A stretch of DNA of 57,134 bases from Candidatus Dojkabacteria bacterium (GCA_046753765.1 JBHHUN010000007.1:1-57134), one strand, 5' to 3'. Shown: positions 21,443-26,851, counted from the stretch's first letter. Program-made: numbers and translations. Notes: generated by a model not told the origin, from the letters alone.

Positions 21443-22570
21443 ATGTGTGGCAGGATAATCAGATTTCTACTCTCAGCCATTGCAATCTTTCTTGTATTCC
21501 TGGGCATCCTGCTGCTTGCGCTCCGAATTCCACTGCTTAATGCAAACACCTACAAAACCGCACTCGAGAACTCCGGGATCTATAGCACAGCAAGAGAGCA
21601 GGCAGAGGCGTTTCTACTTCCCGATAGAGAAGATGAAAAGACAGCTGGAGCTTACGTGTTTCTTGATCCTATCCTTGACAACCTAGATATTGAAGAGGTG
21701 CTGAGAACGACTGTCAACAATAACCTAGACAACTTTTTCTCATGGGTGAATGGCACCTCTGAAAAACTGACTATATACTTTCCCCGAACAACTTTAGTGC
21801 AAAGCTTTAAATTTGAAGAGCTAGAAGCAAATCTTATCTCGGAGTTTCGTGATCAGATAGCTGAGCTTCCTGAGTGTACAGAGGCAGAGCTTCTGGAGCT
21901 AAAGAAAAATGAGACCGGAGAGGAATTATTCATTCCTGAGTGCAGACCACCCGGAGAATTTGACGATGTAATAGCTGCTAGCCAGGAAGATCTCCTTGAT
22001 GAGATCAAAACTCTTTTTGGCGAAGAAAACCCGGTGGAAGTTGCTCTTGATGAAGCGAACCTTGGCCACCTAAATGAATCGACTGACCTCAGGACACTGA
22101 TCGAGAACCAACCTGGCACAAACGCAGGTGAGGCGCTCAACAGCCTTGAGCAGATACGCAATTACGTGTTTTATACATTGATTCTCGGTTGGGCACTGAT
22201 CTTTGTTGCCGCGCTTCTGCTTGTCATAGTTATCATCACTGGGAAACTCTCAAACAAAGGTACACTGACTACGATCTCCAATATCTTCCTTGTCGTTGGT
22301 GTCCTGTTGACTGTTGTAGCATTCCTTGGGATGCGTCTCCCCGACATGATACTCCCCTTACTTGAACAACAGCTTATGAGTGTTCCTGTTGAGACAGAGG
22401 CATTTGCCAACATTGCACAATCGGTAGTGGAAGAACTTATACCAGTGGTATTTAGACTCCCGCTGTTTGTCGGGTTGTCCATCTTTTTCGTCAGCCTGTT
22501 GATGAGGATAGCCAGCTTACTGATGAAAGATGAACCTGTGACAGAGACAGTTGGACAAAAACAATCTTGA
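21443..22570 (+). CDS. Membrane protein, paralog 1 (N-terminal TM, large extracytoplasmic loop, 3 C-terminal TMs)
   Basis: Hydropathy pattern; LPECTE...FIPECRP Cys pair; similar to the next gene. Confidence 0.8.
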   Translation: MCGRIIRFLLSAIAIFLVFLGILLLALRIPLLNANTYKTALENSGIYSTAREQAEAFLLPDREDEKTAGAYVFLDPILDNLDIEEVLRTTVNNNLDNFFSWVNGTSEKLTIYFPRTTLVQSFKFEELEANLISEFRDQIAELPECTEAELLELKKNETGEELFIPECRPPGEFDDVIAASQEDLLDEIKTLFGEENPVEVALDEANLGHLNESTDLRTLIENQPGTNAGEALNSLEQIRNYVFYTLILGWALIFVAALLLVIVIITGKLSNKGTLTTISNIFLVVGVLLTVVAFLGMRLPDMILPLLEQQLMSVPVETEAFANIAQSVVEELIPVVFRLPLFVGLSIFFVSLLMRIASLLMKDEPVTETVGQKQS

Positions 22571-22619: not shown

Positions 22620-23816
22620 ATGTTCAAAGGTCTGATTAGGTTTCTACTTGGGGTTTTATCAGTGGTTTTCATCTGCGCTGGACTTCTTATCCTGACAGTG
22701 CGACTGAGGGCATTTGACCCCGACACTTATAAGCTCGCTCTTGCCCCTTCAGGAGTTTACAAAGAATTTCGTTTCCAACTTGAAGAGTTTCTGCTAGCAA
22801 ATTATGCTGCAACCCAGTCAAAGGAATCAGCTATAGAACTGGCGATACTGGAAGAAATCGACTTCAAATCTTTTACCGTCCCGGCTGGGGAAAGAAATAT
22901 TGACAACATTTTTTCATGGCTTAACCAGGAGCAGACACACCTTGGGATATACATTCCCCGGCAAGCGGTTACTGAAAAACTATCAAATCCTGAAATAAGA
23001 TCGAACATTTCAAGCCAACTGGATGCATTGTTAGACCAACTGCCTCCTTGCCCTGAAGACACACAAGATATCCTTGCTCAAACTAGTAATAGTCCTGATT
23101 TAGAAATGAGTGACCTAGCCGTATTTCCTGCCTGCATTCCCTCTGGTGGTGAGGTTACTGCTACTGAAGTCAATCTTGAATTAGAGAAATTTTTCACAAA
23201 ACTCTCGAATGAGAATTTTGTTGATAAGGTCACGGGGCTGGCTGAGTTCACTGTTTCTTCAGATGAAACAAATATAATGCAAATACAATCTCAACTTCCT
23301 GCTAAAACCAGACTTCGGATGCAGGCTAACCTTGAAACAGTCAGGAATTTAGCCGAAACTTTGACAGTAATTGGCTGGACCGCAATTATTATCGGAATTG
23401 TTATGCTACTTCTCGTCATCTTCCTCAAAAAGTTCAACTGGCGCAATATGCTTCTCACAATTTCTACGGTATTTATCCTTGCGGGGCTGCTAACCTTGAT
23501 AGTTGCATATTTCGGGAACTCGTATCCGGAGACAATGCTCGAATATATCCCTGAATACATACTCAAGAACAGTCAGCTTACACCCCAGATGGCTGCGGCG
23601 GCAAAGAACTTTCATACAAGTGCCATATCAAAACTATTTGAGATGAGTCTTTATACCGGTGGAGCAGTGTCTATAATCGGGTCAATCGTTTTCCTCGCGG
23701 CGAAGCTAATGCCAAAAACTAAAGGGGAGAGACGAAGATCGACAACTATTGGGCAGGGCTTACCAACAGATGATGATCTCGCACCTAAACTGAAGCCAGG
23801 CTTACAATCTGTATGA
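22620..23816 (+). CDS. Membrane protein, paralog 2
   Basis: Same layout; DTYKLALAPSGVY, NIDNIFSWLN, LPPCPE...VFPACIP. Confidence 0.8.
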   Translation: MFKGLIRFLLGVLSVVFICAGLLILTVRLRAFDPDTYKLALAPSGVYKEFRFQLEEFLLANYAATQSKESAIELAILEEIDFKSFTVPAGERNIDNIFSWLNQEQTHLGIYIPRQAVTEKLSNPEIRSNISSQLDALLDQLPPCPEDTQDILAQTSNSPDLEMSDLAVFPACIPSGGEVTATEVNLELEKFFTKLSNENFVDKVTGLAEFTVSSDETNIMQIQSQLPAKTRLRMQANLETVRNLAETLTVIGWTAIIIGIVMLLLVIFLKKFNWRNMLLTISTVFILAGLLTLIVAYFGNSYPETMLEYIPEYILKNSQLTPQMAAAAKNFHTSAISKLFEMSLYTGGAVSIIGSIVFLAAKLMPKTKGERRRSTTIGQGLPTDDDLAPKLKPGLQSV

Positions 23817-23842: not shown

Positions 23843-23868
23843 TTGACAACACCCCCTGGGGGTGTTGT
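23843..23868 (+). promoter_or_regulatory. -35 box overlapped by a perfect 11-bp inverted repeat (CsoR-type operator candidate) upstream of gdhA
   Basis: TTGACA at 23843-48; ACAACACCCCC-T-GGGGGTGTTGT at 23846-23868. The matching -10 is weak. Confidence 0.65.
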
Positions 23869-23891
23869 ATTTCGCTTTTAAGGTTTACACA

Positions 23892-25127
23892 ATGAATAAC
23901 CCACTTGTAAACGCACACAAGCAGCTTGAAAGTGTCGCTTCCTTAATAAAGCTGGAGAGCTCAATTCTGGAGCGGCTCCAGAATCCAGAGAGGCTTATAA
24001 AAGTATCGATTCCACTTAGGATGGACGAGGGAGAAGACAGGGTTTTAGTTGGATTTCGCTCCCAGCATAACAGCACTCTTGGTCCATACAAAGGTGGGGT
24101 CAGGTTTCACCCTGATGTTACAGAAGATGAAGTTGTAGCACTCTCAATGTGGATGACCTGGAAAACAGCAACTGTAAACCTGCCATACGGTGGCGGGAAA
24201 GGTGGCGTTATAGTTGACGCGAAAGCCCTTAGTGAACACGAGCTTGAGAGACTTGCCAGAGGGTATGTACGTGCTCTGGCAGATTTCTTTGGACATGAGA
24301 CGGATATTCCAGCTCCAGATGTAAATACAAACGCACAGATAATGGCTTGGATGAGCGATGAATACAGCCGGATTGCAGGAAGCCACGGGAGTAAGCATAC
24401 ATTCACTGGTAAGCCTGTTAACCTTGGTGGTTCACTTGGCAGGGAAGAAGCCACCGGACAGGGAGGTGTATACGTACTCAATGAGCTCTCTGCAGATTTC
24501 GAAATAGATCCCAATGAAACAACCATTGCGGTCCAGGGAATAGGAAATGTCGGGTACTGGTTTGCAAAACTCGCGTCTGACAACGGATACAAAATCATCG
24601 CCATATCAGACTCACGTGGTGGCGTATATAACGCAGAGGGCATGGATATTGACAAGGTTGCCGATCACAAAAAGAAGTACGGCAATTTAGCAGATTACTC
24701 TGCCAAGAGCATTGAAAACAAAGACCTGCTTGAACTGGATGTGGACATACTCGTTCCATCAGCCCTGGAGAACGTAATAACAGAGGAAAATGCTGCCGAC
24801 ATAAAGGCAAAATATATTATAGAAATGGCAAACGGGCCAATCACACACGAAGCTGAATCTATTCTTCTGGATAAAGGGATAACAGTGGTTCCCGATATTC
24901 TTGCAAATGCAGGAGGAGTGACTGTCAGCTACTTTGAGTGGGTTCAAAACAGGATGGGTTTTCACTGGACACACGGTGAGGTCCTCTCAAAACTGCAGCC
25001 AATTATGGCAGACGCGTATCAACAGGTTACAAACAAAAGCCACAAACTGAGCACAGATCTAAGAATGGGTGCGTATGCCGGTGCAGTTGAGAGGGTTGCT
25101 GAGGCAATGAAGATCAGGGGTTTTTAA
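23892..25127 (+). CDS. gdhA: Glu/Leu/Phe/Val dehydrogenase, glutamate dehydrogenase-like
   Basis: GPYKGGVRF, GGGKGG, DIPAPDVNT, TGKP, GREEATG, QGIGNVG, NAGGVTVSYFEW. Start reassigned to the ATG at 23892. Confidence 0.93.
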   Translation: MNNPLVNAHKQLESVASLIKLESSILERLQNPERLIKVSIPLRMDEGEDRVLVGFRSQHNSTLGPYKGGVRFHPDVTEDEVVALSMWMTWKTATVNLPYGGGKGGVIVDAKALSEHELERLARGYVRALADFFGHETDIPAPDVNTNAQIMAWMSDEYSRIAGSHGSKHTFTGKPVNLGGSLGREEATGQGGVYVLNELSADFEIDPNETTIAVQGIGNVGYWFAKLASDNGYKIIAISDSRGGVYNAEGMDIDKVADHKKKYGNLADYSAKSIENKDLLELDVDILVPSALENVITEENAADIKAKYIIEMANGPITHEAESILLDKGITVVPDILANAGGVTVSYFEWVQNRMGFHWTHGEVLSKLQPIMADAYQQVTNKSHKLSTDLRMGAYAGAVERVAEAMKIRGF

Positions 25128-25134
25128 CATAGAA

Positions 25135-25172
25135 AATGGTACGCCTGATCATTTCGTACAGCGCGTACCATT
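25135..25172. terminator. Stem-loop between convergent gdhA and trxB
   Basis: AATGGTACGC (25135-44) pairs with GCGTACCATT (25163-72); A/T-rich flanks. Confidence 0.55.
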
Positions 25173-25190
25173 AATTAGTTAGAAGGTAAA

Positions 25191-26165
25191 TTACTCCCCT
25201 GGTGTGTTTGTGTATATATTAGCACTTGTGTCAACCTCTACCCCCTTTTTCTCAAGCCACTTTTCAAGGTCTATGGCTGCCATACATCCCATTCCTGCAG
25301 CTGTAACAGCCTGTCTATAGCGGTGATCGTTCACATCTCCTCCTACAAAGACACCATCAACTGACGTATGTGTGTTGTCTTTGACAACTATATATCCAAT
25401 GTCGTTAAGGTCAACTGCATCTCCAAGGAACTTTGTGCTTGGGATGTGACCTATTGCAAGGAACATACCGTCGACCTTAAGTTCGGTCTCTTCATTTTTT
25501 TCAGTATTCTTGAGCTTGAGTGCTGTGACGTTTGTTTCGTTACCAAGCACCTCCAGGATTTCGGTATTCCAGATAATTTCGATCTTCTCGTTCTCCTTAA
25601 CACGTTGCTGCATTATCTTACTTGCCCTGAATTCACCTCGTCTGTGAATGATATAGACCTTGCTTGCAAATCTGGTCAGGTAAGATGCCTCCTCCATAGC
25701 GCTGTCACCGCCGCCGATAACTGCAACTACTCTTTCTTTATAAAATGCACCGTCGCAGGTTGCACAAGATGACACCCCTTTTCCCCAGAACGCACTTTCG
25801 CTCTCGAGGCCCAGTCTTCGTGAAGTAGCACCGGTAGCTATAATTATTGCTGTAGCCGAATACTCCTCATCACCAACCCATACCTTTTTCACATCTCCCG
25901 AGAAATCAACTCTGTCTACGTTTTTATGGATGATTTCGGTTCCAAACCGTTCAGCCTGTTTCATCATCATCTCCATAAGTTCAGGACCCTGAACTCCCTC
26001 AGGAAACCCCGGGAAATTCTCTACATCTGTTGTAGTCATAAGCTGGCCGCCAAACTCCAGTCCGGCAAACAGTATCGGCTTAAGATTTGCTCGTGCTGTG
26101 TAGATCGCAGCTGTTAGACCGGCAGGACCTGAGCCAATGATTATGACGTCTCTTTTGTCTGACAT
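25191..26165 (-). CDS. trxB: Thioredoxin reductase
   Basis: GSGPAG, GGQLMTT, CATCDG, GGGDSA, YRQAVTAAG. Confidence 0.97.
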   Translation of the reverse strand: MSDKRDVIIIGSGPAGLTAAIYTARANLKPILFAGLEFGGQLMTTTDVENFPGFPEGVQGPELMEMMMKQAERFGTEIIHKNVDRVDFSGDVKKVWVGDEEYSATAIIIATGATSRRLGLESESAFWGKGVSSCATCDGAFYKERVVAVIGGGDSAMEEASYLTRFASKVYIIHRRGEFRASKIMQQRVKENEKIEIIWNTEILEVLGNETNVTALKLKNTEKNEETELKVDGMFLAIGHIPSTKFLGDAVDLNDIGYIVVKDNTHTSVDGVFVGGDVNDHRYRQAVTAAGMGCMAAIDLEKWLEKKGVEVDTSANIYTNTPGE

Positions 26166-26182
26166 ATTGAAAAACTAATAAG

Positions 26183-26524
26183 TTAAGTGTTATTGATTGC
26201 TTCCTGAAGCTCTTCAATAAAGACGTGTTTTGGCCTGTAACCAATAAAGTCACCTATCACTTTTCCGTCCTTAAACAATTTCATGTTTGGAATACTGCGG
26301 ACTTGGTATTGGAAGGCGATCTGCTGATTGGCAGAGACCTGTGTGTCCAGTTTAGTTATTTTAAGCTCCTCTTGCAACTCGTCAGCGATCTCATCGAGAA
26401 TAGGTGCCATCATACGGCAGGGCATACACCAGTCGGCCCAAAAATCGACAAGAACAGGCTTGTCTGACTTAAGCACTTCGACTTCGAAGTCTTTTCCATC
26501 GAGATCTGATGCTTGTTTTGACAT
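26183..26524 (-). CDS. trxA: Thioredoxin
   Basis: VLVDFWADWCMPCR, cis-Pro SIPN, FKDG. Confidence 0.95.
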   Translation of the reverse strand: MSKQASDLDGKDFEVEVLKSDKPVLVDFWADWCMPCRMMAPILDEIADELQEELKITKLDTQVSANQQIAFQYQVRSIPNMKLFKDGKVIGDFIGYRPKHVFIEELQEAINNT

Positions 26525-26559
26525 AAGAACTAATTATAGAAGTAAAATATGTGCTGTTT

Positions 26560-26799
26560 TTAGCTGTTTCTAATCAGTTCTGTAAAGAAACTTCTACACG
26601 CCTCTTCCTCGTTCTCACAGTCCTTAATAAAAGTCCAGAAGTTCTGCTCTATGTATTTTGTCATTACAGAATTAAGTGCAGACCGTGCAGCTTTCATTTG
26701 GGTTATAACTGCAAAGGGATCTTTTTCCTCGTCTACCATCTTCTTTACGCCGTTAAGCTGACCGACGATATTATTTATTAGCTGTTCGTTTGATTTCAT
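26560..26799 (-). CDS. CsoR/RcnR/FrmR-family regulator with non-canonical ligand set
   Basis: IVGQLNGVKKMVDEEKD..VITQMKAARSAL matches the DUF156 helical pattern; the canonical Cys, His and Cys are absent. Confidence 0.8.
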   Translation of the reverse strand: MKSNEQLINNIVGQLNGVKKMVDEEKDPFAVITQMKAARSALNSVMTKYIEQNFWTFIKDCENEEEACRSFFTELIRNS

Positions 26800-26821
26800 A
26801 ATTATAGTAGTAAACTGTAAG

Positions 26822-26851
26822 AGTATAACCGATACCCCAGGGGGGTGTCAA
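26822..26851 (-). promoter_or_regulatory. Promoter of the csoR-like/trxA/trxB operon with G/C-tract operator in the spacer
   Basis: Minus strand: TTGACA (26851-46), CCCCCCTGGGGTATCGGT, TATACT (26827-22); imperfect palindrome GACACCCC-CCT-GGGGTATC. Confidence 0.75.

Follow-up and report, generated by a model that had tools for sequence, protein, structure and literature searches.

A CsoR/CstR-family repressor with a conserved operator may join the thioredoxin system and glutamate dehydrogenase in one stress regulon of Patescibacteria

Do the thioredoxin genes and the glutamate dehydrogenase gene that face each other in a genome segment of Candidatus Dojkabacteria bacterium belong to a single regulon? 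The segment, 57,134 nucleotides long (GCA_046753765.1, JBHHUN010000007.1:1-57134) and here called the window, contains a gene for glutamate dehydrogenase (gdh) that is convergent with a unit encoding a small CsoR-like regulator, thioredoxin and thioredoxin reductase (csoR-trxA-trxB), and each of the two units is preceded by a TTGACA hexamer joined to a palindrome of a C-tract and a G-tract. The original prediction was that the regulator co-represses trxAB and gdh. Our analysis supports this proposal by the conservation of the operator and by the recurrent linkage of the genes, from which binding and repression are inferred. Taken together, the results make it likely that a CsoR/CstR-family repressor controls a stress regulon consisting of csoR-trxA-trxB and gdh through thiol-sensitive occlusion of the promoters.

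The presence of TTGACA and of a C-tract/T/G-tract palindrome at both units was confirmed in every detail, including sequences, coordinates and gene calls. At gdh, the -35 hexamer TTGACA (23843-23848, plus strand) directly abuts the core operator ACACCCCCTGGGGGTGT (23849-23865), which lies within a 23-bp palindrome, ACAACACCCCC-T-GGGGGTGTTGT (23846-23868), with perfect 11-bp arms around T23857. The palindrome is followed by an AAGG Shine-Dalgarno-like element and by the ATG of gdh (23892-25127, plus strand), which encodes a hexameric-type glutamate dehydrogenase (GDH) of 411 amino acids from the ELFV dehydrogenase group (PF02812 and PF00208). On the opposite side, the site TTGACACCCCCCTGGGGTATC, reading from 26851 to 26831 on the minus strand, stands ahead of the csoR-like gene, trxA and trxB. 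Here the -35 hexamer TTGACA (26846-26851, minus strand) overlaps by 3 nt with the putative autoregulatory operator ACACCCCCCTGGGGTAT (26832-26848, minus strand), whose right half-site is GGGGTAT, and the -10 hexamer TATACT follows at 26822-26827 on the same strand. This promoter, TTGACA-18-TATACT, matches 11 of 12 positions and was the best call of the region in a promoter scan. The three genes behind it, all on the minus strand, encode the putative CsoR/CstR-family repressor of 79 amino acids (26560-26799; PF02583), a thioredoxin of 113 amino acids (trxA, 26183-26524; TIGR01068, 111 bits against a cut-off of 96.8) and a thioredoxin-disulfide reductase of 324 amino acids (trxB, 25191-26165; TIGR01292, 424 bits against a cut-off of 343). 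The core common to both sites, CCCCCTGGGG, had been thought to have no other intergenic copy, and it does occur exactly twice within the window, once per site; moreover, C4-N(0-5)-G4 arrangements of any kind were confined to the same two places.

Conservation of the palindrome was assessed in relatives of the regulator. A word-based homology search with the regulator returned six relatives, and a scan of one genome per species of the Genome Taxonomy Database (GTDB) yielded 56 loci, nearly all from Patescibacteria, with the best regulator matches in WS6/Dojkabacteria (55-59% identity). In about 45 of these 56 loci the csoR-like gene or its operon is preceded by the element TTGACACCCC-N3-GGGGTGT-a-TG-n-TAnnnT, and the same element together with its -35 hexamer (cTTGACACCCC-N3-GGGGTGT-a-TG-n-TAnnnT) was also found at L001, L005, L006, L186 and L190. 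The 17-bp palindrome ACACCCC-N3-GGGGTGT thus occupies the spacer of a promoter that has a -35 sequence of consensus form and an extended -10 sequence, and the 3-nt overlap of TTGACA with the operator that is seen in the csoR promoter of the window recurs in the approximately 45 orthologous promoters. Likewise, the GGGGTAT half-site variant of the csoR operator in the window is present at the promoter of its closest relative (L190). In a weight matrix built from 45 independent orthologous promoter sites, from which the window sites were excluded, the gdh site scored 31.7/30.6 bits, 31.7 being the maximum possible, and the csoR site 22.8/21.1 bits; no other position in the window scored above 7.7 bits. 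Among 200 random windows generated with a first-order Markov model the highest score was 18.6 bits, with none of the 200 reaching 20. The gdh site matches all 14 specified positions of the operator and in addition carries the commonest central triplet; its TTGACA lies at an offset of +3 from the operator, compared with mostly 0 in the csoR promoters, where +2 (L008), +4 (L104) and +5 (L005) also occur. When at most one mismatch was allowed, about 1 Mb of csoR-centred loci gave 50 matches, every one of them linked to TTGACA and of the same kind, with one site per 20-kb locus of the relatives, in almost every locus, as against two in the 57-kb window. Judged by these sequences, this subgroup of the CsoR family has the palindrome as its conserved operator.

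A scan of metagenomes with the bare 14-base pattern returned 80 matches, among which no further gdh site was found. Ten matches with an adjacent TTGACA were followed (nine at offset 0 and L104 at offset 4); nine of them head operons of csoR-like, trxA, SLAC1-type or fusion-protein genes, and one gave no match. The ACACCCC-N3-GGGGTGT palindrome alone is not diagnostic of an operator.

Two further observations were made during these searches. Two metagenome contigs, L099 (3969-4080) and L110 (635-746), each carry two copies of an element of about 50 bp, AAAATGGGACACCCCG(C/T)AGGGGTGTCATTTCAAATC..., 95 bp apart, which is a repeated hairpin unrelated to the csoR operator. In addition, several contigs labelled 'uncultured Gammaproteobacteria' or 'Bdellovibrionales' (L020, L027-L029, L037, L044, L047 and L053) contain a patescibacterial regulator and operator, and the promoter sequence of L020 is identical to that of L001, a contig resembling the Candidate Phyla Radiation (CPR); the taxonomic assignment of these bins seems questionable.

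The second line of evidence is the recurrent association of the genes. Operon content was determined by chaining co-directional open reading frames downstream of each operator, clustering them and annotating the clusters with Pfam. By this approach trxA was found behind the regulator in 28 loci and trxB in the operons of L007, L008, L021, L024, L034 and L186. The gdh gene lies within the regulator operon in ten other genomes (named loci: L009, L010, L011, L016, L018, L021, L024, L030 and L186); the GDH of the window clusters with the operon genes of L009, L010, L011, L016, L018, L021 and L030, and tblastn adds L024. In the csoR-centred loci each gdh that was detected sits inside the operon, and among the contexts of seven close GDH homologues only that of P0013 (58% identical; L186) is a four-gene operon, but since the sampling of gdh contexts is biased in both directions, these counts give no frequency of membership. 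The L186 operon has the order csoR (79 amino acids)-trxA-trxB-gdh behind TTGACACCCCCTAGGGGTGT and is syntenic with the window, with thyA, dhfr and a homologous membrane-protein gene in common; its regulator has Pro at the sensing position X, as does the window protein. Compared with L186, the window has gdh turned round at the same place and behind a 5' region of its own that bears the operator, and this splitting of gdh from the operon with retention of the operator is read as conservation of the regulon. In a tree of GDH sequences, operonic gdh genes occur in both deep patescibacterial clades, each with 100/100 support, and are interspersed with stand-alone genes in the clade of the window, suggesting that the linkage is old or has arisen repeatedly and has often been lost.

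What, then, could the regulator sense? The protein matches PF02583 (DUF156) over residues 8-67 with 54.2 bits (gathering score, 22.8), and its AlphaFold2 model consists of three helices (residues 4-23, 28-59 and 64-77; mean pLDDT 91.4), as is characteristic of the protomer in the CsoR/RcnR superfamily. A further feature of the superfamily, a G/C-tract operator in an inverted repeat overlapping the regulator's own promoter, is present in the window and in the approximately 45 orthologous loci. The closest solved structure by sequence is CstR from Streptococcus pneumoniae (7MQ1; E 1.3e-5), and the scores against NCBIfam models, including weak matches to RcnR and RicR, were 24-33 bits, compared with cut-offs of 133-175. 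The CstR family is defined by an x-C-x-C dithiol (PMC8643695). Consistent with this type, 39 of the 46 family members have Cys at positions X and Z and mostly Asn at Y. In the window protein, by contrast, the sensing positions are P28 (X), N53 (Y) and F57 (Z), and hence neither the X/Z dithiol pair of CstR nor the x-C-H-C ligand set of Cu(I)-sensing CsoR is present. The fingerprint of RcnR/InrS (H-C-H-H or H-C-H-C) and the Pro2 and Cys35 of FrmR were not found either, the N-terminus being MKSNEQ and position X having no Cys. The protein does contain a C61-x6-C68 pair. Two additional cysteines, at Z+4 and near Z+11, occur in 12 of the 46 family members, and where both canonical cysteines at X and Z are absent, as in the window protein, L186, L007, L008 and P0002, this second pair is kept in five of five cases. 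In the AlphaFold2 model, C61 lies in the loop between helices alpha2 and alpha3, and alpha3 contains C68 in its first turns. The C61/C68 pair is likely to be a redox-sensitive sensor element in the Dojkabacteria-type subclade. The regulator probably works in a CstR-like manner, that is as a thiol-based, promoter-occluding repressor, though for another set of target genes and, within this clade, through another pair of cysteines.

The other genes found behind the operator are of interest for the nature of the signal. They include genes for formamidopyrimidine-DNA glycosylase (Fpg), desulfoferrodoxin (a superoxide reductase, SOR) and rubrerythrin, TehA/SLAC1-like anion channels in about 14 loci, and, in some loci, HlyD and AcrB efflux pairs with a YgaP-like transmembrane protein; further partners are an SBF (ACR3-like) transporter with CBS domains, DUF302, a protein of the metallo-beta-lactamase fold and NDK. 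The neighborhood typical of CstR (rhodanese, persulfide dioxygenase, sulfide:quinone oxidoreductase (SQR), CoA-persulfide reductase and TauE) was not found among the operon partners, with the YgaP-like protein and DUF302 as hints of sulfur metabolism. As annotated, the shared theme of these operons is the repair of oxidized thiols, the removal of reactive oxygen species (ROS) and the export of anions or metalloids, and not the efflux of copper or nickel. Fpg, desulfoferrodoxin and rubrerythrin, a set for defense against oxygen and ROS, are held by the operons of L010, L017, L021 and L030. The Patescibacteria of these loci are usually regarded as anaerobic fermenters. A separate group of Moraniibacteria-type loci (L032, L033, L038, L041, L042, L046 and L049) has operator and regulator at the head of an operon of HlyD and AcrB (RND), often with the YgaP-like transmembrane protein and without trxA, and the regulators of these operons have the canonical X/Z cysteine pair only. 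The thioredoxin enzymes themselves show some variation: the active site of TrxA in the window is WCMPC and not the canonical WCGPC, and the same holds for L008 and L186; among the 28 operon-linked trxA genes, 22 encode WCGPC, three WCMPC, two WCAPC and one WCQPC. TrxB of the window has the redox site CATC and an NADPH-type HRRGEFR motif.

Several observations weigh against a common, signal-responsive regulon of csoR-trxA-trxB and gdh. First, the expectation that motif and linkage recur in related genomes held for the csoR operons with gdh in ten genomes, including L186, but failed at six stand-alone orthologues of gdh (L063, L064, L065, L187, L188 and L189), at which neither the motif nor a nearby csoR gene was found; L064, moreover, comes from the same Dojkabacteria assembly as L034, a csoR-trxA-trxB operon that does carry the motif. 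From these six genes we conclude that gdh is a recurrent but facultative member of the regulon. Second, the preference of the GDH for NAD or NADP could not be discriminated by similarity to solved structures, the closest of which are the GDHs of Thermococcus, Pyrococcus and Thermotoga, or by the dinucleotide-fold region. Third, the sequence was found in DNA runs only, from one hydrothermal-vent sample. Finally, with the canonical sensing residues absent, the window protein may respond to no signal. In that case the regulator would bind both operators and merely set the levels of the thioredoxin system and GDH by homeostatic negative feedback. P28, N53 and F57 indeed leave neither a canonical ligand nor a dithiol, and the lower score of the autoregulatory site relative to the gdh site would fit simple feedback. 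However, the invariance of C61 and C68 in the five sequences that have lost the canonical pair, and their presence in the 12 relatives with four cysteines, argue for a retained function, and the partners in related operons are genes of stress defense (SOR, rubrerythrin and Fpg). We therefore regard pure feedback as improbable, though it is the alternative that survives best.

The remaining points against a common regulon concern the gdh palindrome itself, which might be no more than an intrinsic terminator belonging to the membrane-protein gene upstream (22620-23816), with a coincidental likeness to the operator and with gdh outside the regulon. A terminator scan does call a hairpin there, 30 nt past the upstream stop codon, in which 10 pairs close a loop of 3 nt; ATTTCGCTTT comes after it. 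No promoter was called for gdh, and the candidates for its -10 sequence are weak, namely TATTTC with a spacer of 19 nt or TGTATT with one of 17 nt. In addition, the matches to ACACCCC-N3-GGGGTGT in the metagenome scan other than the ten followed have no adjacent TTGACA, and many of them resemble ordinary hairpins. Nevertheless, the site reaches the maximum of the weight matrix, none of the random windows having come to even 20 bits, a perfect TTGACA abuts it at an offset within the range of true csoR promoters, and the downstream gene is a member of csoR operons in ten other genomes, among them the syntenic L186. Because of this combination of a perfect operator match, an abutting TTGACA, gdh downstream and synteny with L186, a coincidence is very unlikely, and the reading as a terminator only was rejected. 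In a compact genome the palindrome could plausibly serve as operator and terminator at once. Taken as a whole, the gdh leader showed no significant RNA fold (z-score -0.86).

Could the regulator be a classical sensor of Cu(I) or of Ni/Co, like CsoR, RcnR or InrS, with the trx genes as passengers? It shares with the Cu(I)-sensing CsoR proteins of Mycobacterium tuberculosis, Bacillus subtilis and Streptomyces lividans the Pfam family, the fold, the GC-tract operator and the autoregulated operon, its NCBIfam matches to RcnR and RicR, far under the cut-offs, point in the same direction, and some relatives head the HlyD and AcrB efflux operons described above. In contrast to these sensors, however, all three sensing positions are occupied by non-ligands, there is no N-terminal His, QLINNI replaces the Arg-rich motif of helix 1, and the window operon has no gene for metal efflux or a metal chaperone, with no copA or copZ linked to it. 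Together with the fact that the nearest solved relative is a persulfide sensor, this led us to reject a metal-sensing role, to which we attach very little probability. The notion that a different DNA-binding protein recognizes the palindrome, with the csoR-like gene co-occurring incidentally, draws on the recognition being deduced for the CsoR-like protein, but it is hardly credible and was rejected as well, given that in about 45 loci of several patescibacterial lineages it is the csoR-like gene itself that has the motif in front of it, whatever genes lie downstream, and that a C-tract/G-tract in an inverted repeat is the published operator type of CsoR/CstR, for example ATATACCCTTATGGGGTATAT at cst of Streptococcus mitis (PMC8643695).

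For the thiol-sensitive repressor that we favor, the following mode of action is proposed. The 79-residue PF02583 protein, presumably a tetramer like other members of the CsoR family, would bind ACACCCC-N3-GGGGTGT between the -35 and -10 sequences of sigma-70-type promoters and thereby block RNA polymerase. It would have at least two targets in the genome, namely its own operon, through the weaker site with the GGGGTAT half-site, and gdh, through a site of perfect consensus; such a pairing suggests that gdh is tightly controlled and that expression of the thioredoxin operon is leaky. A thiol-reactive signal, for which disulfide or oxidative stress, persulfides and metalloid oxyanions are candidates, would modify the sensor cysteines and lower the affinity for DNA, so that both units would be de-repressed together. 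Thioredoxin, NADPH-dependent thioredoxin reductase and GDH would all increase as a result, GDH being the likely source of reducing equivalents. That GDH may supply NAD(P)H to TrxB, and hence the direction and cofactor of its reaction, is suggested by the logic of the operon and by the NADPH motif of TrxB. With regard to its history, the ancestor would have had gdh in the operon, as in L186, and in the lineage of the window gdh would have been inverted in place and retained in the regulon by its own copy of the operator. In the Dojkabacteria-type subclade the canonical CstR-like cysteine pair would have been lost, with C61/C68 as the likely sensor.

Three features of the surrounding genes may be added. 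Between the convergent genes gdh and trxB, which are 63 bp apart, lies a hairpin, AATGGTACGC ... GCGTACCATT (25135-25172), with a folding energy of -18.8 kcal/mol on one strand and -18.9 kcal/mol on the other; it probably terminates transcription in both directions. Upstream of gdh, two tandem genes (21443-22570, 375 amino acids, and 22620-23816, 398 amino acids) encode paralogous membrane proteins of no Pfam family, both weakly homologous (25-28%) to a 391-residue protein at the syntenic position of L186. In L064 (4712-6260; Dojkabacteria assembly WJKM01), the operator-less gdh is preceded at a distance of 25 nt by a gene for an 87-residue protein of the ArsR/SmtB type (HTH_5); in this assembly another small stress repressor may control gdh.

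Among known systems, the closest parallel is found in CstR of Staphylococcus aureus, Enterococcus faecalis and S. pneumoniae (SPD_0073; 7MQ1), with which the regulator has in common the three-helix fold and the position of its gene as the first of the operon, besides being nearest to it among solved structures; most patescibacterial relatives also carry the dithiol pattern x-C-N-C. A C-tract/G-tract operator that lies inside an inverted repeat and overlaps the promoter is likewise common to both (PMC8643695). Differences are seen in the window protein, in which C61-x6-C68 stands instead of the two CstR cysteines, in the flanks of the operator, which are ACAC/GTGT here and ATAC/GTAT for CstR, and in the regulon. 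Whereas the known CstR regulons comprise sulfurtransferases, persulfide dioxygenase, SQR, CoA-persulfide reductase and TauE, the genes concerned here are trxA, trxB and gdh, and elsewhere those for SOR, rubrerythrin, Fpg and TehA-like proteins.

Thiol-stress regulators of trxA and trxB in other bacteria are Spx in Bacillus, SigR-RsrA in Streptomyces and OxyR, which act by activation or via an anti-sigma factor. The regulon proposed here would resemble theirs in two predictions, that thiol-oxidative stress induces thioredoxin and thioredoxin reductase and that cysteines do the sensing, but these regulators belong to unrelated protein families, and a promoter-occluding repressor is predicted in our case. 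To our knowledge, none of them co-regulates glutamate dehydrogenase. A metabolic precedent comes from Plasmodium falciparum GDHa: this NADP-dependent GDH was proposed as a supplier of reductant to thiol redox systems, but the enzyme proved dispensable (PMC3163627). The idea of GDH providing NADPH to the thioredoxin or glutathione systems in an organism of reduced metabolism is the same, but the parasite is a eukaryote with no shared regulator, and the link proposed here is a genetic one, by a shared operon and operator.

CPR bacteria constitute a large part of bacterial diversity, and their gene regulation is almost unknown; we know of no experimentally characterized stress regulon in Patescibacteria. 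In keeping with the original prediction, which did not recognize the regulon from the literature, we found no published description of a CsoR-family regulon of trx or gdh, nor of any CPR stress regulon. In a large network study of the CsoR family several clusters are uncharacterized, and thioredoxin is absent from its text (PMC8643695). Our results point to an undescribed thiol/oxidative-stress regulon that appears to be widespread in Patescibacteria. A considerably bolder view, which we put forward as a possibility and consider rather doubtful as a whole, would make this protein the master thiol/oxidative-stress regulator of Patescibacteria, with thioredoxin, thioredoxin reductase, GDH, SOR, rubrerythrin, Fpg and exporters of anions or metalloids in a regulon defined by its conserved operator, with GDH as a dedicated generator of NADPH for thioredoxin reductase in cells of minimal metabolism, and with sensing in Dojkabacteria/WS6 moved from the interprotomer X/Z dithiol to C61-x6-C68 at the junction of alpha2 and alpha3.

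The conserved module of promoter and operator provides a ready, testable regulon for CPR organisms, and the small size of the regulator should allow it to be easily tested in vitro. Thousands of uncultured genomes could also be annotated for stress genes with the operator as a marker. If the proposed switch at C61-x6-C68 is true, it would represent a geometry of sensing that has no described example in the CsoR fold. For the biology of the organism, the thioredoxin system would be genetically tied to glutamate dehydrogenase, its probable source of reductant. For the family, the results would extend CsoR/CstR regulation from metal efflux and sulfide detoxification to a new output, thiol repair and ROS defense, and in this lineage to a new candidate sensing site.

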